Assembly: GCA_963663765.2 (NCBI GenBank)
Contig: CAXXUA010000010.1
Coordinates: 1-25,277 of the forward strand
DNA length: 25,277 nt
Source: Candidatus Poribacteria bacterium
GTDB taxonomy: Bacteria > Poribacteria > WGA-4E > WGA-3G
Reading direction: 5' to 3'
The translations under genes and the position numbers were made by a program. Position 1 is the stretch's first letter; the number at the start of each line of letters is the position of its first letter. A model generated the notes under the pieces. That model saw only the letters and a list, made by a program, of their open reading frames with translations, did no database searches and was not told the origin of the DNA. This document shows positions 1-25,277 of this stretch, piece after piece.

Positions 1-326
1 TTGAGTTTGGGTGAGTGCGTGGCGCGCTTATAAAGCACGCCTGCAGTGGGGGTATGCCAGCAGGTGAGGGTGGGGATGGCGCGCTTACAAAGCACCAAAT
101 CAAGAAATCAACGGTATGAATGCCATTTAGGCATTCCCCGGGTATGAATGCCATTTAGGCATTCCCCGCCTGCAAGGGAGTGCACGGGGTGCGCTTCCAA
201 AGCACCAAATCAAGTAATCAAGAAATCAACGGTATAAATGCCTTTTGGTATTCCCCCAAATCAACGCCGAATGCGCGTATGGCATTCGTCGGGTATGAAT
301 GCCATTTAGGCATTCACCGCCTACCG
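1..326. repeat. Cluster of REP family A (GCGCGCTTACAAAGCACGCCTGCAG/CTAC); two copies are interrupted by CAAATCAA micro-elements
   Basis: Three copies of the hairpin GCG(C/T)GCTT-ACA-AAGCACGC. Inserts at 96-167 and 206-318 split AAAGCAC|GCCT. Confidence 0.85.
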
Positions 327-6391: not shown

Positions 6392-6664
6392 TTATACCTC
6401 TATGGTCTCTTGGAAGTCCTGAAAAGAGGTTGCAAGTGAAGCATTAAGGTTCACCTGCTTGAGTTGGTTGATGTCAGCAATAGCCTCAAGTCTGGGGATG
6501 AGGACATTGACATCTGCATGCGGGAAACGTGCTTTGATGACTGCCAATGTATTTTCAATACTCGTTTGGCGCGCCCCTTGTTCAATGCCTTGTTCAATGC
6601 CTTGTTCAATGCCTCGTTCAATGCCTCGTTGGATCACATGTTCGTAAAAAGGTGAATCTTGCAT
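6392..6664 (-). CDS. Predicted internally initiated small isoform (RpnS-like, 90 aa, MQDSPFYEH...)
   Basis: In-frame GGAGG-caatc-ATG inside the gene, matching the known RpnL/RpnS organisation. Confidence 0.6.
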   Translation of the reverse strand: MQDSPFYEHVIQRGIERGIEQGIEQGIEQGARQTSIENTLAVIKARFPHADVNVLIPRLEAIADINQLKQVNLNASLATSFQDFQETIEV

Positions 6665-7303
6665 GATTGCCTCCAGTAAAGGGTCCTGAAAAAATTCTTT
6701 GGGATGTGCTAAACTCCCGAAAAGCGAGAGTGCAAATAAAAGGGTAGCCCGCATCTCTCTGTCAATATCAACTGTCTGGATCGTCTGAATACACTTCTCA
6801 ACCCAGCTTTGAGGAGTCATGTCTGCGGGCGGTTTCATCAAAGCCGTGAAAGGCAATAACCCTACAGCTTCGGGGTCCAAGAACGCCTCACCCTCCAACT
6901 CATAGATACGGATGACGTTATACTGAAACCACACGCCGCCACGTTGTGCGTTTCCATACCTATAGAAACCAGGGTCCCTTTGTCCCGCGGGTGGACGGAA
7001 ATACAACACCGTTGAATAAACATTCTTCTCATGTTCAAGGGCAAGAAAACTCGAATACGCCAGCATTCGTAAAGGCATCGGTTTATGGGTGCTGTCGTCG
7101 GTTTGTGCCTCTATATGTAGGATCGCCTCCTCATCGGGCAGGCGCACATGAAACGTCATATCACTATGATGCATCCGAACCGTGGCTTGCTCTGTGCTCA
7201 ACCGTTCCACGACTTCCACCTCTGACGTTTTCAGTGCTAACACTGCCAAGTCCTGTGGGAACTCCCCAGTAACGTGTTTGAAGATTTCATCATAATACGG
7301 CAT
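6392..7303 (-). CDS. Rpn family (recombination-promoting nuclease / putative transposase, PD-(D/E)xK fold) protein, copy 1
   Basis: YDEIFK start, HSDMTF..ILHIEAQT (D..ExQ), MPLRMLAY, LLPF, SPFYEH, GIEQG repeats and a helical tail. ATG 7303 chosen because a promoter lies directly upstream. Confidence 0.85.
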   Translation of the reverse strand: MPYYDEIFKHVTGEFPQDLAVLALKTSEVEVVERLSTEQATVRMHHSDMTFHVRLPDEEAILHIEAQTDDSTHKPMPLRMLAYSSFLALEHEKNVYSTVLYFRPPAGQRDPGFYRYGNAQRGGVWFQYNVIRIYELEGEAFLDPEAVGLLPFTALMKPPADMTPQSWVEKCIQTIQTVDIDREMRATLLFALSLFGSLAHPKEFFQDPLLEAIMQDSPFYEHVIQRGIERGIEQGIEQGIEQGARQTSIENTLAVIKARFPHADVNVLIPRLEAIADINQLKQVNLNASLATSFQDFQETIEV

Positions 7304-7309
7304 ATAATT

Positions 7310-7339
7310 ATTATACATGCATTTATGAAGAAATGTCAA
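7310..7339 (-). promoter_or_regulatory. sigma70 promoter TTGACA-N18-TATAAT ending 6 nt before the ATG (leaderless); also present in copy 2
   Basis: Minus strand reads TTGACA tttcttcataaatgcatg TATAAT aattat ATG, with no Shine-Dalgarno. Confidence 0.75.
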
Positions 7340-7440
7340 GATGTTTATAAGTATCACGAGTTGTGCTAAATAACTATATGTTAATCATTGTTTCACATAA
7401 GCATGGCGTTTTGCAGGTGTCCTTCATAGTTTGAAACGAT

Positions 7441-7650
7441 CTTTAGTCCCGCCAAATGCCATACGCGCATTTGGCGTTGATTTGGTAGGGACGATATGTT
7501 TATAGAAAAACGTCATAGTACATCCTCTTTAGTCCCGCCAAATGCCATACGCGCATTTGGCGTTGATTTGGTAGGGACGATATGTGTGCATTATAAACCT
7601 AATATATGTAATAACTTTGAAAACAATTGGTTAACTGGCACAAGTCGTTA
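7441..7650. repeat. Two REP C units, each split by a 34-bp micro-element (7451-7484, 7537-7570), then an 80-bp segment inverted relative to 11892-11971
   Basis: GTCCC|insert|GTAGGGAC, compared with uninterrupted GTCCCGTAGGGAC elsewhere. Confidence 0.85.
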
Positions 7651-8026: not shown

Positions 8027-8949
8027 TTATACGTCTATGGTCTCTTGGAAGTCCTGAAAAGAGGTTGCAAGTGAAGCATTAAGGTTCACCTGCTTGAGTT
8101 GGTTGATGTCAGCAATAGCCTCAAGTCTGGGGATGAGGACATTGACATCTGCATGCGGGAAACGTGCTTTGATGACTGCCAATGTATTTTCAATACTCGT
8201 TTGGCGCGCCCCTTGTTCAATGCCTTGTTCAATGCCTTGTTCAATGCCTTGTTCAATGCCTCGTTCAATGCCTCGTTGGATCACATGTTCGTAAAAAGGT
8301 GAATCTTGCATGATTGCCTCCAGTAAAGGGTCCTGAAAAAATTCTTTGGGATGTGCTAAACTCCCGAAAAGCGAGAGTGCAAATAAAAGGGTAGCCCGCA
8401 TCTCTCTGTCAATATCAACTGTCTGGATCGTCTGAATACACTTCTCAACCCAGCTTTGAGGAGTCATGTCTGCGGGCGGTTTCATCAAAGCCGTGAAAGG
8501 CAATAACCCTACAGTTTCGGGGTCCAAGAACGCCTCACCCTCCAACTCATAGATACGGATGACGTTATACTGAAACCACACGCCGCCACGTTGTGCGTTT
8601 CCATACCTATAGAAACCAGGGTCCCTTTGTCCCGCGGGTGGACGGAAATACAACACCGTTGAATAAACATTCTTCTCATGTTCAAGGGCAAGAAAACTCG
8701 AATACGCCAGCATTCGTAAAGGCATCGGTTTATGGATGCTGTCGTCGGTTTGTGCCTCTATATGTAGGATCGCCTCCTCATCGGGCAGGCGCACATGAAA
8801 CGTCATATCACTATGATGCATCCGAACCGTGGCTTGCTCTGTGCTCAACCGTTCCACGACTTCCACCTCTGATGTTTTCAGTGCTAACACTGCCAAGTCC
8901 TGTGGGAACTCCCCAGTAACGTGTTGAAGATTTCATCATAATACGGCAT
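8027..8949 (-). pseudogene. Rpn family protein copy 2 with a -1 frameshift near codon 9 (8924-8925); the internal small ORF 8027..8311 is intact
   Basis: GTGTTGAAGA here versus GTGTTTGAAGA in copy 1. Otherwise ~99% identical, with 4 GIEQ units versus 3. Confidence 0.75.
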
Positions 8950-9455: not shown

Positions 9456-11582
9456 TCAAAGGGTACGTGCGATCTGTTCGTGGACGTAACATTCCAACAC
9501 ATCCCCAATTTCAATATCGTCAAATTCGTCTATACCGATACCGCATTCATAATTCGCTTGTACTTCGTTCACATTGTCTTTAAAACGTCTCAATGAATCG
9601 ACCTTACCTTCGTAAATCAAACGATTATCGCGTAGAACTCGGAGCGGTTGGTCCAATGCGATTCGACCCCAGTTAACATAACTGCCAGCAACTAATCCAA
9701 TACGTGGTGCTTTAAAGATTTCCCTGACCTCAGCTCGTCCGATAATCACTTCACGTACCTCTGGGTCTAACAGACCTTCCATTGCGGATCGGATATCAGA
9801 GATAATGTCGTAGATAACGGTATAGGTGCGGACATCAATTCCCTCGGTTTCGGTTGTTTTCACCGCTTCTGTTGTAGGGTGCACGTTGAACCCAACAACA
9901 ATAGCATCGGAGGCGGAGGCAAGTAGTATATCTGTCACTGTGATTCCACCCGTCGCTTCGTGAATTATATTGATCTTCACTTCAGGAGTGCTCAATTTTA
10001 TCAATGATTCCGCTATTGCTTGAACAGAACCTTGTACATCGCCTTTAACAATAACGTTCAGTTCCTTGATGTCCCCTTCCTGAATCTGCTGGAATAGGTC
10101 ATCCAAACTGACGTGGCTGTGTGTCCCCAGTTTAGAAATTCTGTACTTGTCTTGGCGTTCTTCACTGATAGCACGAGCGTCTTTTTCGGAGTCCACGACA
10201 AAGAATAGGTCCCCCGCTTCAGGTACTCCTGTAAACCCAAGCACCTCGACAGGCGTAGAAGGTCCGGCGACTTTAATCCTTTTGCCATCATCACTCATCA
10301 TCGCGCGAACTCTGCCGGAGTATCTCCCAGATACAAAAGTATCACCAACTTTTAGTGTGCCACTCTGTACTAAGACGGTTGCAATTGCTCCGCGACCTTT
10401 ATCCACTTGTGCTTCAATCGCAACACCGCGTGCAGATTTGTTTGGATTGGCTTTTAATTCCAAGAGTGCTGCTTCCAATAGCAACATCTCTAACAACAAC
10501 TCTATCCCTGTACCTTCTATGGCAGACACCTCTACACAGATCGTTTGCCCACCCCAATCTTCTGGTACCAAGTCATTATCTACCAACTGCTGTTTTACAT
10601 AATCTGAACGTGCACCTGGTACATCTATTTTGTTGATAGCAACCACAATCGGTACTTTCGCTGCTTTCGCGTGATTAATTGCCTCAATTGTTTGCGGCAT
10701 CACACCGTCATCCGCAGCAACGATAAGAACAACGATGTCTGTTGCTTGTGCACCACGCGCTCTCATTGCGGTAAACGCTGCGTGTCCTGGAGTATCAAGA
10801 AATACAATGTTGCCATTTTCTAATTCTACATGATATGCACCGATGTGCTGGGTGATGTTCCCCGCCTCAGATTCACTTACATTCGACTTGCGGATAGAAT
10901 CCAATAGGGATGTCTTACCGTGGTCAACGTGTCCCATAATCGTGATAACAGGTGCACGTGATACAAGCGATTCAGGCAGATCCTCTTCCTCAGACAAAAG
11001 TTTTTCTTCAAGTGTTTGTTCCGGCACTGCTTCAAAATCGTATTCTGCCCCCAACACTAACAATGTCTGATAATCTAACCTTTGGTTAATTGATGCCATC
11101 ACCTTCATTTTCATCAATTGCATAATCAAGTGTGTAGATTGCAAGTTAAGCAGTTTTGCCAACCCACCGACAGTAATACCCTCTTGTACTTGCGTACGTC
11201 TATCTGCAGGTGTTTTGTCATCTACTTCTTCAACACCACCTGCTTCTTCAACATCACCTGCTTCTTCAACATCACCTACTTCTTCAATATCACCTGTTTC
11301 TTCTTGTGTCTCCTTGTGGGTTTCTTCTTGTGTGATTTGTGACTCAGTTTCTTTTTTATCAATTATTTCTTGCTTGGGACTCAGTTCGGCTTCAACTAAC
11401 ATGATGGTATCCGGATCCAAAGAACTCATGTGATTTTTTATTGCCACACCTAAACCATTTAGTACATTAATAAGCTGCTTACTGCTTAATCCGTGGCGTT
11501 TTGCTAATTCATAGATTCTCACATTTTGGCTTTGCGTAGATTTTTTGGGAGTTTCAGCGGATTGCTGTTTTGTTTTTTTCAT
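9456..11582 (-). CDS. infB: Translation initiation factor IF-2
   Basis: VRIYELAK N-domain, [35 protein letters not shown]. Confidence 0.99.
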
Positions 11583-11862
11583 CGGCGATTATCTCCTTTT
11601 CAAGTAGTGCTTGTTTGAACTCGGTGATAACCGATTTCGTCAGGTGCACTCGTAGCAATGCGTTTATCCGTTTGGGTGCATTAAATGCTGCTTCAATGCA
11701 ACATTTAGAACGACAGACATAGGCGCCACGTCCGGGAAGTTTTTTTATTGAGTCCATTTCCAAAACGTTACCTATGCGACATACAAAACGGATTAACATT
11801 TTCTGTGGAAATTTAAAACGGCACCCAATACAGGTGCGAATAGGAACTTTCATACTTTTCAC
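11554..11862 (-). CDS. ylxR: YlxR / DUF448 family RNA-binding protein (start may be ATG 11853)
   Basis: PIRTCIGC...GRGAYVC..CC signature; overlaps the infB start. Confidence 0.92.
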   Translation of the reverse strand: MKSMKVPIRTCIGCRFKFPQKMLIRFVCRIGNVLEMDSIKKLPGRGAYVCRSKCCIEAAFNAPKRINALLRVHLTKSVITEFKQALLEKEIIADEKNKTAIR

Positions 11863-12105
11863 TGGCTGACTGTGTAGACAAGTTATTTTTATAACGACTT
11901 GTGCCAGTTACCCCATTGTTTTCAAAGTTTTTACATATATTAGGTTTATAATGCACACATATCGTCCCTACGGGACTAAAGAGGGTTTGTCAAGGATTTC
12001 TATAAACATACAGGGTTATTTAGTTTTAATAATTATCAGTTAATGGGTGTTACTTAAAGTTTATATCGTAGTCTATCATGTCGGGTTTCGCTCACGCTCT
12101 ACCCA

Positions 12106-13309
12106 TAGGTGTCAACTTAAGGATTCTGATCTCTTGTGGGAGGGGTTTTCAACCCCGATTTTATGTTCATTTCCACTCAAATCGGGGTTACAAACCCCTC
12201 CCACAAGAGAATATGCCAACAATATTTTCTTAAGTTGACACCTATCAAATGGGGGTTACAAACCCCTCCCACAAGAGAATATGCCAACAATATTTTCTTA
12301 AGTTGACACCTATCAAATGGGGGTTACAAACCCCTCCCACAAGAGAAAATGACAACAATATTTTCTTAAGTTGAGACCTATCAAATGGGGGTTACAAACC
12401 CCTCCCACAAGAGAATATGCCAACACATTTTTCTTAAGTTGACACCTATCAAATGGGGGTTACAAACCCCTCCCACAAGAGAATATGCCAACACATTTTT
12501 CTTAAGTTGACACCTATCAAATGGGGGTTACAAACCCCTCCCACAAGAGAATATGCCAACACATTTTTCTTAAGTTGACACCTATCAAATCGGTGTTACA
12601 AACCCCTCCCACAAGAGAAGTTGACACCTATCAAATCGGGGTTACAAACCCCTCCCACAAGAGAATATGCCAACAATATTTTCTTAAGTTGACACCTATC
12701 AAATGGGGGTTACAAACCCCTCCCACAAGAGAATATGCCAACAATATTTTCTTAAGTTTACACCTATCAAATCGGGGTTACAAACCCCTCCCACAAGAGA
12801 ATATACCAACAATATTTTCTTAAGTTTACACCTATCAAATCGGGGTTACAAACCCCTCCTACAAGAGAATATGCCAACTCAAATCGGGGTTACAAACCCC
12901 TCCTACAAGAGAATATGCCAACTCAAATCGGGGTTACAAACCCCTCCCACAAGAGAATATGCCAACAATATTTTCTTAAGTTGACACCTATCGGGGTTAC
13001 AAACCCCTCCTACAAGAGAATATGCCAACTCAAATCGGGGTTACAAACCCCTCCCACAAGAGAATATGCCAACTCAAATCGGGGTTACAAACCCCTCCTA
13101 CAAGAGAAGTTGACACCTATCAAATCGGGGTTACAAACCCCTCCTACAAGAGAAGTTGACACCTATCAAATCGGGGTTACAAACCCCTCCCACAAGAGAA
13201 TATGCCAACTCAAATCGGGGTTACAAACCCCTCCTACAAGAGAATATGCCAACTCAAATCGGGGTTACAAACCCCTCCTACAAGAGAATATGCCAACAAT
13301 ATTTTCTTA
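12106..13309. repeat. One full MITE/REPIN-like element (12106-12244) extended into a tandem array of about 20 REP B copies built from 68-, 46- and 44-bp units
   Basis: Core CAAAT(C/G)GGGGTTACAAACCCCTCC(C/T)ACAAGAGA, with optional ATATGCCAAC, AATATTTTCTT and AAGTTGACACCTAT modules. Confidence 0.92.
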
Positions 13310-13315
13310 ATGGGA

Positions 13316-14701
13316 TTATATATTCTCCTCAGATTCGGGTTCAGTTTCGATATCCGAATCATTTGTATTCTCTGAGAGAGTTTCAATAAGGTCTTCAGTG
13401 GCTGTTTCATCTCCATTGTCCGTAGACATCTCTTCGGGATTATCAGATGTATCTTCTGTTTCTGCTGTTTCTGCTGTATCCTCTGAGAGAGTTTCAATAA
13501 CGTCTTCAGTGGCTGTTTCATCTCCATTGTCCGTAGACGTCTCATCGGGATTATCAGATGTATCTTCTGTTTCTGCTGCATCCTCAGTTTCATTTGAATC
13601 CCCTTTAAATAACGTCTCCAGCGTAACAGGTGCTTCGGAATCGCTCTTTATGTCAATATGCCATTCGGTGAGTTTTGCAGCGAGACGTGCGTTTTGTCCC
13701 CTTCTACCGATAGCAAGAGACAATTTATCATCAATAACGATGACGTTTGCGATCTTTTCCTCTTCGTTGAGTTCAACTCGACGTATTTCTGCGGGTTTTA
13801 AGTTCAAAGCGTTAGAAATATAGGTACGTGGGTCCTCGCTCCATTCAATAATATCAATTTTCTCGTTTTTAAGTTCGCGAACAATTGTTTGTACTCGTGC
13901 GCCTCTAACACCTACACATGTCCCTAATGCGTCAATACCGTCTTCGGTAGCAGTGACAGCAACTTTTGCGCGGAATCCTGGATCTCGTACAACATTGAGT
14001 ACCCGGACCTGTCCATCATAAACTTCTGGCACCTCATGTTCGAATAACCTTGCTATTAGGTCTGGATGTGTTCGGGATACAACTATCTGTTCTCCAGTCA
14101 TGGTATCTTTTACTTCCAAGATCAGACACCGCAAGGAGTCGCCCCGAGTGTACCGGTGGTGTAGTGGGATCTGGCTTGCTGGCAATAGTGCCTCGGTGCG
14201 TAAGACGTCTGTTCGTTCCAAATCAATAATGGCATTTGGTCCGTCATACCGTTGTAGGTAGCCGACAATGATTTCGCCTTCTCGTCCTTCAAATTCACTG
14301 TAAATTAGTTCGCGTTCCGCTTCTCTAAGTTTCCCCAGTAGAATCTGCCGTCCTAATTGTGCTTGTATCCGTCCGAATTCGTCAGGACTGATTTCAACAT
14401 CGATCATATCCCCTATTTTCGCGTCCGGATCAAGTTTTTGTGCCACCTCAATAGGAATCTCAGTTGAGAAATCTTGCATGATATTAACGACCTTTTTTGG
14501 TACGTGGCACTTAATTTCCTCATTAGCAAGATTGATATCTACGGATACCTTTGACTCAGAACCGTAGTGTCGCAATGCGATTGAACGTAATGCATCTTCA
14601 ATAGCGCCGATAAAAACATCCTCCGGCAAATCGGTGTGTCCCATCATTTGCCGAATAGATTGCTGTAAACTTTCTCTTCTATCTTCAGTTCTCTGTTTCA
14701 T
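13316..14701 (-). CDS. nusA: Transcription termination/antitermination factor NusA with an acidic duplicated tail
   Basis: FGRIQAQ, S1 domain, SRTHP..EVPEV, RDPGFRAKVAV, CVGVRGARVQ, SLAIGRRGQNARLAAKLT. AGGAG precedes ATG 14701. Confidence 0.97.
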   Translation of the reverse strand: MKQRTEDRRESLQQSIRQMMGHTDLPEDVFIGAIEDALRSIALRHYGSESKVSVDINLANEEIKCHVPKKVVNIMQDFSTEIPIEVAQKLDPDAKIGDMIDVEISPDEFGRIQAQLGRQILLGKLREAERELIYSEFEGREGEIIVGYLQRYDGPNAIIDLERTDVLRTEALLPASQIPLHHRYTRGDSLRCLILEVKDTMTGEQIVVSRTHPDLIARLFEHEVPEVYDGQVRVLNVVRDPGFRAKVAVTATEDGIDALGTCVGVRGARVQTIVRELKNEKIDIIEWSEDPRTYISNALNLKPAEIRRVELNEEEKIANVIVIDDKLSLAIGRRGQNARLAAKLTEWHIDIKSDSEAPVTLETLFKGDSNETEDAAETEDTSDNPDETSTDNGDETATEDVIETLSEDTAETAETEDTSDNPEEMSTDNGDETATEDLIETLSENTNDSDIETEPESEENI

Positions 14702-14750
14702 ATTTCTCCTAATCATGGTGCAGTTCGTAAGTGGATATGATTCCGACTGA

Positions 14751-15218
14751 TTACCACACGAGTTGGATATATCCTTTACATACTCGCGCAATTTCAATAT
14801 GGACGGGTTCACCCGATGTTTGTTGCAAAGTTACACACCCATCAACGGCATTTATTATTTCTCCTTTAACTTCGTGCAGTTGTCCGTTGGATGCGGTAGC
14901 CTCAATTAGAACGGTTCTTCCTATATTTCGCTGAAAATCAGGTTCTGTTGTCAAAGGACGATCAATTCCTGGTGAAGCAATTTCCAGTTGTTTGAATTCT
15001 GTTAGTATCTGGTGTACTTCTAATATTGGACGAACCGTTTGATTCACTGCTTGACAATCTGATACGGAAAGACCGCCTTGTTTGTGTATTAGCAGACGTA
15101 ATATCTGATTTTTTCGGTTTTTTGCTATTTCTACAGCGACCAGTTCAAAACCCTCTGTATTAAGGAGAGGCGTTAACATATCTGCAACAGTTGCTTCAAT
15201 ACCATCTGCCATTTTCAT
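14751..15218 (-). CDS. rimP: Ribosome maturation factor RimP
   Basis: GFELVAVE, GGLSVSDC, LEIASPGIDRPL; first gene of the operon. Confidence 0.95.
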   Translation of the reverse strand: MKMADGIEATVADMLTPLLNTEGFELVAVEIAKNRKNQILRLLIHKQGGLSVSDCQAVNQTVRPILEVHQILTEFKQLEIASPGIDRPLTTEPDFQRNIGRTVLIEATASNGQLHEVKGEIINAVDGCVTLQQTSGEPVHIEIARVCKGYIQLVW

Positions 15219-15548: not shown

Positions 15549-16470
15549 GGGTGTGTAAAGTTTTTGCACAGAGGTACTAACTTTTGTTCTCTTTAGTCCC
15601 GTAGGGACGCAATGTTTATAGAAAGACGTTATCACCCTCTCTTGAGTTCCATAGGAACGACATAGAAGAATAAACATATCGTCCCTACCAAATCAACGCC
15701 AAATGCGCCAAATCAACGGTATGAATGCCATTTAGGCATTCCCCGTATGGCATTTGTCGGGACTAAAGAGTATGTGCTATGGCGTATTTCTATAAACATA
15801 TCGTCCCTACCAAATCAACGCCAAATGCGCCAAATCAACGGTATGAATGCCATATGGAGATTAATAAATAAATTAGGTGATTCTATCTAACCCACCCTGG
15901 TAGGCATGTTGGCACATCAAGTCCCAATAGCGCGCTTACAAAGCACGCCTACCATCGGGGGCGCGCTTACAAAGCACCAAATCAACGGTATGGGTGTGTA
16001 AAGTTTTTGCACAGAGGTACTAACTTTTGTTCTCTTTAGTCCCGTAGGGACGCAATGTTTATAGATAGGTGTAATCACCCTCTCTTGAGTTCCGTAGGAA
16101 CGACATAGAAGAATAAACATATCGTCCCTACGGGACTAAAGAACTGGGAAGGGCACTTGTTTTCTATAAACATATCGTCCCTACGGGACTAAAGAACTGG
16201 GAAGGGCACTTGTTTTCTATAAACATATCGTCCCTACGGGACTAAAGAACTGGGAAGGGCACTTGTTTTCTATAAACATATCGTCCCTACGGGACTAAAG
16301 AACTGGGAAGGGCACTTGTTTTCTATAAACATATCGTCCCTACGGGACTAAAGAGGATGTACTATGGCGTTTTTCTATAAACATATCGTCCCTACGGGAC
16401 TAAAGAGGATGTACTATGGCGTTTTTCTATAAACATATCGTCCCTACGGGACTGAAGAGGATGTACTATG
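15549..16470. repeat. Repeat mosaic: ~140-bp direct repeat (15549-15688 and 15992-16131), nested micro-elements, a REP A pair and a REP C array of about 7 units of 52-53 bp
   Basis: GGGTGTGTAAAGTTTTTG starts (also at 9002); AAACATATCGTCCCTACGGGACTAAAGA units with two linker types. Confidence 0.88.
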
Positions 16471-24515: not shown

Positions 24516-24964
24516 GTAGGCGGGGAATGCCATACGCGCATTCATACCGTTGATTTGGTGCTTTGTAAGCGCGCTGCACACTCAACTGCGGGGCGCGCTT
24601 ACAAAGCACGCCTGCAGTTGAGTGTGCGGCGTGGTTTGTAAGCGCGCCCCCCTACGTTCCCCTGACTGCAGGCGTGGTTTGTAAGCGCGCCCCCCTACGT
24701 TCCCCTGACTGCAGGCGTGCTTTGTAAGCGCGCTCCCTACGTTCCCCCTGACTGCAGGCGTGCTTTGTAAGCGCGCTCCCTACGTTCCCCTGACTGCAGG
24801 CGTGCTTTGTAAGCGCGCTCCCTACGTTCCCCTGACTGCAGGCGTGCTTTGTAAGCGCGCCTCGCCCTCAACTGCAGGCGTGCTTTGTAAGCCGCGCCCT
24901 CGCCCTCAACTGCAGGCGTGCTTTGTAAGCGCGCTCCGTGACTGTGCGTGCTTTGTAAGCACGT
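24516..24964. repeat. REP family A cluster directly upstream of the RAYT gene, with ~42-bp tandem units; the first unit carries a 36-bp micro-element (24522-24557)
   Basis: CTGCAGGCGTGCTTTGTAAGCGCGCTCCCTACGTTCCCCTGA repeated. Confidence 0.9.
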
Positions 24965-24996
24965 TTAAAAACTAATAACTGAAATATAAGACAAAT

Positions 24997-25277
24997 ATGG
25001 ATACTGTAAAAACATATCGTAGTCAAGAATTACGCAAAGGTAGACACTCTATCCAAGGGGCATACTATCATGTCACGACTGTAACGTATAAGCGTAAACC
25101 TATTCTTGCAAACGACGCAACTGCGTCCATCATTATAGGTGCCTTTAATTGGTTGAAAAAGAAGACCGTATTAGATGGATTTGTATTATGATAATGCCAG
25201 ATCACCTGCATACAGTTTTTCAGCTTGGTGAGACACATGACCTATCCAATGTAATACACTCTCTAAAAAGGTATACA
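24997..25277 (+). CDS. REP-associated tyrosine transposase (RAYT / TnpA-REP, Y1 HUH family); 5' part only, frameshifted at the A5 run 25156-25160
   Basis: LRKGRHS..GAYYHVTTVTYKRKPIL. After the frame change: EDRIRWICIMIMPDHLHTVFQL..LSNVIHSLKRYT (MPDHLH is the HUH motif). REPs are adjacent. Confidence 0.88.

Follow-up and report, generated by a model that had tools for sequence, protein, structure and literature searches.

The window analyzed here is the entire contig C10 (25,277 bp) of a Candidatus Poribacteria genome of 6.35 Mb (15 contigs, about 41% G+C), and the subject of this study is a short unit in it that interrupts other repeats. We found that such units probably form, with a probability of roughly 70%, a family of 34–36-bp non-autonomous mobile micro-elements, which insert in a polar manner and mostly at C|G steps (the bar marks the junction) inside other palindromic repeats; that the unit is a truly mobile, site-specific element appears likely. 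When the whole genome was parsed recursively with a fuzzy pattern, 631 units were obtained (477 of type A and 154 of type B, as described below), 513 of them with a C|G junction and 597 followed by G. The C|G step accounted for 67 of the 134 distinct 6 + 6 flank types, against 3.9% CG among all genome steps, and its enrichment in distinct flank types was 13- to 20-fold above background.

The host repeats themselves show how frequently they are interrupted. Among 692 left halves of one host, a repetitive extragenic palindrome (REP) designated REP C, 418 were empty, 43 carried a 34-nt insert, 30 carried a 70-nt insert (B with a nested A), and 177 had no right half within 250 nt; among 1632 left halves of another, REP A, 1039 were empty, 81 carried a 36-nt insert, and 185 had no right half within 250 nt. 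Both 25-nt flanks were repeated at least three times in the genome for 491 of the 579 simple units and were unique for 25, most of which still resemble diverged hairpin hosts. The exact head of the unit occurs 462 times, preceded mainly by the 12 bases TATCGTCCCTAC (117), CTTACAAAGCAC (102), or CGCCAAATGCGC (49). Exact restoration of the host upon removal, as claimed in the initial annotation, held for 362 of the 631 units, whose in silico excision recreated a 16-mer present uninterrupted elsewhere, but not for the remaining 269; many of the latter precede a head-less unit, and some lie in hosts with 1–2-nt differences at the right junction. Head-to-tail arrays of roughly 5–10 complete A units (period 36) were also observed at C5:1377700-1378400 and C6:362300-362960.

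Units and hosts within the window

The two types of unit, A (36 bp) and B (34 bp), have the common head CAAATCAACG; the A body is GTATGAATGC-loop-GCATTCCCC, and the B body is CCAAATGC-GCGTATG-GCATTTG(G/T)C or a variant of it with compensated stems. Every instance listed in the initial annotation is present in the sequence where it had been placed. On the forward strand, the REP A site AAAGCAC|GCCT is split by a compound insert at 96–167, in which a 44-bp A unit (96–139), having one extra 8-mer in its head (CAAATCAA GAAATCAA CG) and the hairpin body GGTATGAATGCC-ATTTA-GGCATTCCCC, follows AAAGCAC and is joined in tandem by a head-less 28-bp A copy (140–167; G plus the A body) and then by the REP A right half GCCTGCAAG. 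A second copy of REP A is entered after AAAGCAC on the same strand by an A unit with two extra 8-mers in its head (206–256), a 34-bp B unit (257–290; CAAATCAACG plus CCGAATGC-GCGTATG-GCATTCGTC) that separates two A bodies at CCCC|GGGTATG, and an A copy lacking the head (291–318), after which the REP A right half GCCTACCG resumes. Indeed, the site TTCCCC|GGGTATG is empty at 134–146 and filled at 257–290, as had been proposed, because the B unit sits between the A bodies of the insert 206–318.

On the reverse strand, two 34-bp B units occupy the first (7451–7484, at GTCCCTAC|GGGAC) and the second (7537–7570) REP C hairpins of a 293-bp miniature inverted-repeat transposable element (MITE; 7356–7648), which has the inverted ends ACGAGTTGTGC.../...GGCACAAGTCGT and is one of 7 genome copies, three of them with a visible 7-bp target duplication. 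A further B unit in REP C (15689–15758, forward) is interrupted at GCGC|GTATGG by a 36-bp A unit nested within it (15709–15744). Near the end of the contig, a simple 36-bp A unit with the loop GCGTATG (24522–24557, reverse) lies in the REP A copy that opens an array (24558–24960) of GTAG/GCAG plus GCGTGCTTTGTAAGCGCGC, upstream of a gene resembling REP-associated tyrosine transposases (RAYTs); this repeat is the commonest host of A units, and the remaining copies of the array are empty. Heads with at most one mismatch were found 12 times in the window against 2.5 expected, a number that none of 100 shuffles reached.

Two incomplete copies on the forward strand were absent from the initial annotation. 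One, at 15811–15853, consists of the left part of a B unit (15811–15830) and the start of a nested A unit (from 15831), whose loop is disrupted by a different repeated sequence (ATGGAGATTAAT...); the other is an A unit in REP A ended after 15 nt (15978–15992) by another repeat (GGGTGTGTAAAGTTTTTGCACA), a junction that recurs at 4 places in the genome. More generally, A units are broken at recurring positions by two other repeated sequences (window positions 15853 and 15992, and contigs C4, C5, C11, and C13): GGGTGTGTAAAGTTTTTGCACA follows CAAATCAACGGTATG at 4 identical junctions, and ATGAAGATTAAT... lies within the A loop in about 10 or more cases. These interrupting repeats may be further mobile elements targeting the unit.

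Anatomy and folding of the unit

The unit is composed of an unpaired 8-nt head, (C)AAATCAA, a nearly invariant CG (positions 9–10; 497 of 506 units), a hairpin with a stem of 7–10 bp, and a final C. In an alignment of 56 unique B units (178 copies) taken from this genome and from the foreign loci among the matches listed (79), head positions 3–9 were invariant in 55–56 of the 56, and position 1 was the most variable (C 41, T 10, G 3, A 2). Double changes were seen in the 9 B stem pairs, with, for example, A-T replaced by G-C at two pairs and T-A by A-T at another, and 90.9% of the stem cells were paired, whereas 500 shuffles averaged 83.7% and reached 85.5% at most; part of the variation is lost because the search pattern fixed some of the B stem letters. 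The 5′ boundary and the 8–9-nt head were constant across all host classes. Of 644 heads, 457 had no extra 8-mer and 187 had 1–5, and 121 A copies were head-less, 86 of them standing directly after CATTCCCC. The motif AATCAA of the head resembles the WATCAA half of the consensus of integration host factor (IHF), and reiterated heads would supply several WATCAA-like half-sites.

Folds were computed for five units of the window, each taken as single-stranded DNA with the host base that follows it. In all five minimum-energy folds, the first 8 nt were free, C9 was paired with the host +1 G, and G10 was paired with the last C of the unit. Compared with shuffled sequences, the two strongest folds had z values of −4.3 and −3.5, and the A2 unit was no better than its shuffles (z = −0.8). 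Because the host G pairs with C9 and the last C with G10, the predicted cut would fall at the foot of the hairpin.

A tiny, polar element without inverted ends or target duplication beyond a 1-nt ambiguity had been proposed initially, and these traits agreed with the counts of junctions and polarity. Its non-autonomous nature was corroborated as well. A search for an autonomous parent, by pairing heads with reverse heads 30–4000 bp apart, gave only three palindromic 43-bp variants and chance pairs. These three double-headed variants (C4:107367, C4:719080, and C5:581182) consist of a head and half a body, a loop, and the reverse complement, and at least one of them is lodged in a GTAGGTC|GACCTAC hairpin.

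Probable insertion into unrelated hosts with gain or loss

At least 11 host-site classes were distinguished, each containing 2–13 element variants: the REP C loop, the REP A 3′ arm, the REP A 5′ arm, the B/A2 loop, the position directly after the A tail, a G-rich hairpin repeat, two sites in the REP family of a second RAYT (REP E, see below), two further GTAG hairpins, and the AGGATTTT repeat. The proposed insertion inside REP-type hairpins and inside the unit itself was thereby borne out. Orientation was absolute, as the left junctions per host numbered 122/0, 198/0, 62/0, 18/0, 36/0, and 17/0 in forward and reverse, respectively. Taking as an empty paralog any match of 90% identity or higher that spans the junction over at least 70 nt, we found one for 290 of the 579 simple units, in 67 in-register flank families (35 singletons) that contain both filled and empty members, and hence at least one gain or loss must be assigned to each family. 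Moreover, 55 units have long-flank empties (at least 140 + 140 nt, at least 92% identity, and 0–4 gap letters); some of these are neighbors in tandem arrays and many are on other contigs, for A and B alike.

The 293-bp MITE offers the clearest case of gain or loss of the unit. All of its 7 copies contain B in both REP C hairpins, showing that B rode on the MITE, and two copies contain an extra A, with different loop variants, at the GCGC|GTATGG step of the B in the second hairpin. Two adjacent MITE duplicates on contig C3 have such an extra A as their sole difference.

It may alternatively be considered that only few true insertions took place and that nearly all present copies descend from a handful of ancestral composites of host and unit, amplified by their hosts and shuffled by conversion or unequal recombination. 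Certain element variants indeed track particular hosts: the B-CCAAATGC variant is in REP C in 111 of 115 cases, the TCAGAAGC/CCAGAAGC variant of B in the G4 repeat in 15 of 15, and A with the CTATTG loop in REP E in 15 of 19. Some flank families hold 10–19 filled copies, B has been carried by every MITE copy, and a fixed polarity is what shared ancestry would give. Thus, much of the copy number is attributable to hitch-hiking, which weighs against transposition as the source of most copies. However, descent from composites would have to reconcile this with at least 11 unrelated host-site classes that obey the same C|G or N|G rule with an exact 5′ boundary, with dozens more host classes in other species, with the mixture of filled and empty members in 67 flank families, with different A variants at one MITE site and adjacent duplicates that differ by the unit only, and with the long-flank empties of 55 units, many of them on other contigs, with 0–4 gap letters. 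We therefore regard such descent as improbable. Because of the host classes, flank families, empties, and MITE differences, derivation of all copies from just one or two ancestral composites fails as an account; the mobility scheme of the initial annotation stands with respect to independent gain and loss, but it had understated hitch-hiking.

Other observations also count against a simple picture of mobility. The C|G rule, which was formulated for the units of the window and holds for all of those originally listed, is broken by 118 of the 631 junctions in the genome, even though nearly all units still precede G. In 4–5 host classes, empty sites differ from the excised filled copies by 1–2 nt on the right of the unit, with A or GA in place of G in some of those classes; the pairs of filled-excised versus empty sequences are GCTTAC vs GCCTAC, GCTCCTAC vs GCCTAC, GAGGTCGC vs GGGTCGC, AGGTCTC vs GGGTCTC, and CAGGATTAG vs GGGATTAG. 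Comparable right-junction mismatches occur in other species. Either rare host variants with a +1 G were targeted, or letters of the donor flank were carried along. Public Logan contigs break at every repeat and provided no strain-level evidence of filled and empty sites, and the unique 25-mer beside the 24522 insertion had no match in a metagenome scan. At orthologous sites of the nearest species (65–90% gene identity), no clean unit-only difference was found; whole composite blocks differ, and the intergenic DNA of these species holds different repeats.

Search for a driving enzyme and possible mechanism

The Pfam Y1_Tnp profile identified six places in the genome, comprising four IS200/IS605-type copies and two RAYT-like genes. 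The four copies represent one element of about 1.75 kb. One RAYT-like gene, encoding a Y1 (HUH) protein, lies in the window (24997–25277, forward) and is cut by the contig end; its N-terminal frame stops at 25188, and the frame changes between this point and the PDHLH motif, which is in the next frame. This frame change may be an assembly error, because public contigs of 3 of 4 runs, which extend about 260 nt past the window, have a one-letter difference from the window within 24908–25277. The gene is downstream of the REP A array, one copy of which is filled, and by this position it is cognate to REP A and not to the unit; the gene order of a monooxygenase-like gene followed by a RAYT is also present in two other species (G006 and G008). 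The second RAYT-like gene (C4:621598-622074, 159 aa, Y1_Tnp E = 1.3e-10) is located amid long arrays of two GTAG REP variants (REP E; locus C4:620161-623487) that differ from REP A and that host A units elsewhere in the genome. A Y2_Tnp (PF04986) profile gave no match in the genome, a result that is uninformative as its control also matched no genome.

A single-strand mechanism of the Y1/HUH type is our best guess for the movement of the unit on anatomical grounds, its order of conserved single-stranded tag, structurally maintained hairpin, and cut at the foot being that of REPs and of IS200/IS605 ends. According to Corneloup et al. 2021 (PMC8266576), cleavage of single-stranded REPs by RAYTs takes place on either the 5′ or the 3′ side of the hairpin, at C|T (or C|A). 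GTAG positions 4 and 3, or alternatively 4 and 2, specify this dinucleotide by being complementary to it, and the changes to GTGG and GTAC redirect cutting to CC and to GA/GT, respectively. The four bases preceding the stem of the unit are AACG, for which the guide rule would predict C|G, in agreement with both the junction and the pairing in the folds. In a possible scheme, the unit would move as single-stranded DNA through a Y1 HUH enzyme (RAYT- or IS200-like) that acts in trans and binds the unit hairpin. The AACG of the head would take the role of the REP GTAG "guide", with C9G10 selecting C|G at the 3′ end of the unit and at exposed C|G steps of other hairpins, and the strands would be joined without duplication. 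Once in place, copies probably multiply further with their host repeats through tandem arrays, MITE transposition, and perhaps conversion.

This HUH/guide mechanism is put forward tentatively and is less likely than not; several results do not sit easily with it. Most copies have C|C at the left (5′) junction, a step not predicted by the guide rule, and the guide idea is without covariation support because positions 9–10 essentially never vary. A RAYT or IS200-type gene flanked by the unit, for which the initial annotation proposed to look, was not found: the end hairpins of the IS200/IS605-type copies are unrelated to the unit, neither RAYT-like gene of the genome has arrays of it at its flanks, and 0 of 30 RAYT loci of the genus contain unit arrays, with 0–2 stray head matches each, so that the unit has no REPtron (a RAYT flanked by its own REP) of its own. 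Nor do the counts of a unit-derived 20-mer among congeners (see below) track RAYT matches, as one genome (G001) has 80 20-mer matches and no RAYT match with the query used, and another (G020) has 3 together with a RAYT match. No enzyme is thus tied to the unit in the genome or in the 30 loci. It is possible, though doubtful, that the unit represents a new class of single-hairpin, single-strand micro-transposon with its own 2-nt guide, parasitizing REP hairpins with the help of an unlinked Y1 HUH enzyme in trans. As regards orientation relative to replication, for which IS200/IS605-like elements favor the lagging-strand template, units were on the G-rich strand in 58–66% of cases, but the host repeats are split alike, GC skew is weak and averages no more than 0.03 in magnitude, and the copies are non-independent.

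Movement without any dedicated transposase may also be envisaged, in which a stalled replication or repair polymerase switches templates between hairpin repeats and the joints are made by 1–3 nt of microhomology. Such an event would be compatible with the failure to find a cognate enzyme, the donor-like letters at the right junctions of several host classes (G, GGG, and GCCTAC), the 8-mer reiterations in 187 of the 644 heads, and the 121 head-less tandem copies, most of them after the same sequence. It would leave unaccounted for, however, a 5′ boundary and an 8–9-nt head that do not change from one host class to another, the absolute polarity, and the marked C|G enrichment in distinct flank types. 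Furthermore, the left joint shows no more than 1 nt of microhomology, and the compensatory changes in the stem are those of a recognized structure. Template switching is therefore considered unlikely, and insertion of a mobile, site-specific unit remains the preferred reading. Two other mechanisms were rejected on anatomical reasoning alone: an integron attC-like element, as the unit has no GTT/AAC core pair, and an IS110/bridge-RNA-like element, for which a 36-bp double-stranded circle is implausible.

Distribution across Poribacteria

The 20-mer CAAATCAACGGTATGAATGC occurs 221 times in this genome and is present in 23 of 24 other congeneric genomes (1–144 matches), and it was found in 0 of 16 genomes from three other families of the order. 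A B-type pattern matched all 37 sampled congeners (2–180 matches each), whereas genomes of the other 21 genera of the phylum sampled gave at most 4 matches each, similar to the 0–2 of a reversed-pattern control. Among the genomes sampled, the family is confined to one Poribacteria genus, and its level elsewhere in the phylum is about that of chance. A collection-wide scan returned at least 79 loci; of those among the matches listed, 76 belonged to Poribacteria metagenome-assembled genomes and 3 to entries of "uncultured bacterium". These foreign loci (79 among the matches listed) contained 124 units, 76 with C|G and 111 with G as the next base, in many further hairpin hosts, and species-specific differences in stem variants were seen among congeners.

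Conservation of this kind might instead reflect selection by the host for a structural module, e.g., a protein-binding site plus hairpin acting on transcripts or on DNA topology. The invariance of the head and the covariation of the stem over at least 37 species would fit such a role, and so would the intergenic location of the units, beside operons such as rimP-nusA-infB; REPs are reported (Di Nocera 2013, PMC3733652) to bind IHF and gyrase and to stabilize mRNA. Yet host selection leaves the nesting, the C|G rule, the pile-ups of up to about 10 units, and the broken copies unexplained, the window had 0 matches to Rfam at gathering thresholds, and the copy number of the exact 20-mer ranges from 0 to 221 among congeners. 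As an explanation in place of mobility it is very improbable; the two are, moreover, compatible and not mutually exclusive.

Relation to known mobile elements

IS200/IS605 elements move by strand-specific, single-strand "peel and paste" and have a hairpin at each end and a 4–5-nt target 5′ of the left end. The unit resembles them in its strand polarity, the absence of inverted ends and target duplication, and a short fixed target, but has one hairpin and a 2-nt site; as a derivative of a resident IS200/IS605 it should have two end hairpins matching that element, which it does not, the ends of the four copies being unrelated. A classical MITE has terminal inverted repeats and a target duplication; the unit has neither, and its 293-bp host has both. 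Helitron/IS91 elements are likewise polar, with a hairpin near the 3′ end, fixed-dinucleotide insertion without duplication, and occasional carry-over of the 3′ flank, but they are kilobases long and encode Y2 HUH proteins. In Nostocaceae, the small dispersed repeats SDR4-6 of Elhai et al. (2008) are reported to be gene-less sequences of 21–27 nt, seemingly mobile and nesting in each other and in other repeats, and are not known to have an enzyme; they belong to another phylum and their sequences are apparently different.

Like the unit, the REPs of REP/REPIN-RAYT systems (Bertels & Rainey 2011, PMC3116915) consist of a 20–40-nt hairpin with a conserved tag on its 5′ side, are numerous and intergenic, and lack inverted ends and target duplication. 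In RAYT systems, according to PMC8266576, REPs are cut at a hairpin-adjacent dinucleotide chosen by tag complementarity, and in IS200/IS605 (IS608 and ISDra2) the hairpins are recognized by structure and a guide lying 5′ of the hairpin foot determines the cleavage site. With its 631 copies, the unit agrees with GTAG REPs as high-copy palindromes of 20–40 bp; GTAG is not directly 5′ of its stem, where AACG stands in 497 of 506 units after an additional 6-nt conserved tail, and the A bodies hold GTAT. The unit has C|G at its junction where REPs have C|T or C|A, and the repeats beside the two RAYTs of the genome are REP A and REP E. In contrast to a REPIN, which is an inverted pair of REPs forming one long hairpin, the unit is a single polar hairpin, with only the 3 palindromic double-headed variants genome-wide. 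It also differs from REPs in residing almost solely inside other repeats, including the GTAG REPs of the two resident RAYTs. REPs inside other palindromes are described by Di Nocera 2013 (PMC3733652) for A. variabilis GTAG-15, T. roseum GTAG-23, and H. neapolitanus CGTC-1. The GC clusters of yeast mitochondria (GC42) are comparable as gene-less mobile hairpins of about 40 nt with rapid turnover and merging into composites; according to Wu & Hao 2015 (PMC4478555), they are organellar, have a putative target duplication and no conserved unpaired head, and their mechanism is likewise unknown. Full-text literature on palindromic, MITE, or REP repeats of Poribacteria contained nothing on such elements among the matches listed.

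If the new-class interpretation is correct, which is doubtful, the unit of 34–36 bp may be among the smallest site-specific mobile DNAs known. The spread of REP-like hairpins is still largely inferred, and the unit could serve as a minimal natural substrate for HUH transposition and for the guide rule, by virtue of its crisp 5′ boundary, 2-nt target, absolute polarity, and hundreds of filled and empty sites; should it carry its own guide, a change of two bases should retarget it. Its nesting accounts for much of the "Russian-doll" architecture of Poribacteria intergenic DNA, even inside operons. Nested repeats break short-read assemblies of uncultured sponge symbionts, as seen in public contigs that end at repeats, and the units could be used as fine-scale strain markers.

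Genes and other repeats of the window

The genes of the window are of an ordinary chromosomal kind and include ThuA-like, ribF-like, and DHH genes, infB (9456–11582), and nusA (13316–14812), in addition to genes for a 1354-aa LTD-domain protein and a monooxygenase-like protein. Hairpin repeats crowd the intergenic DNA between them. The nusA-infB spacer (11583–13315, about 1.7 kb) is filled with tandem 68-bp and 44-bp hairpin repeats having the core GGGGTTACAAACCCC, a repeat load unusual for a spacer within this conserved operon. Two open reading frames, at 6392–7357 and 8027–8896, have no Pfam match and contain 12-bp tandem repeats (CCTTGTTCAATG), and several congeneric genomes carry multiple copies of them, about 10 in one case (G009).

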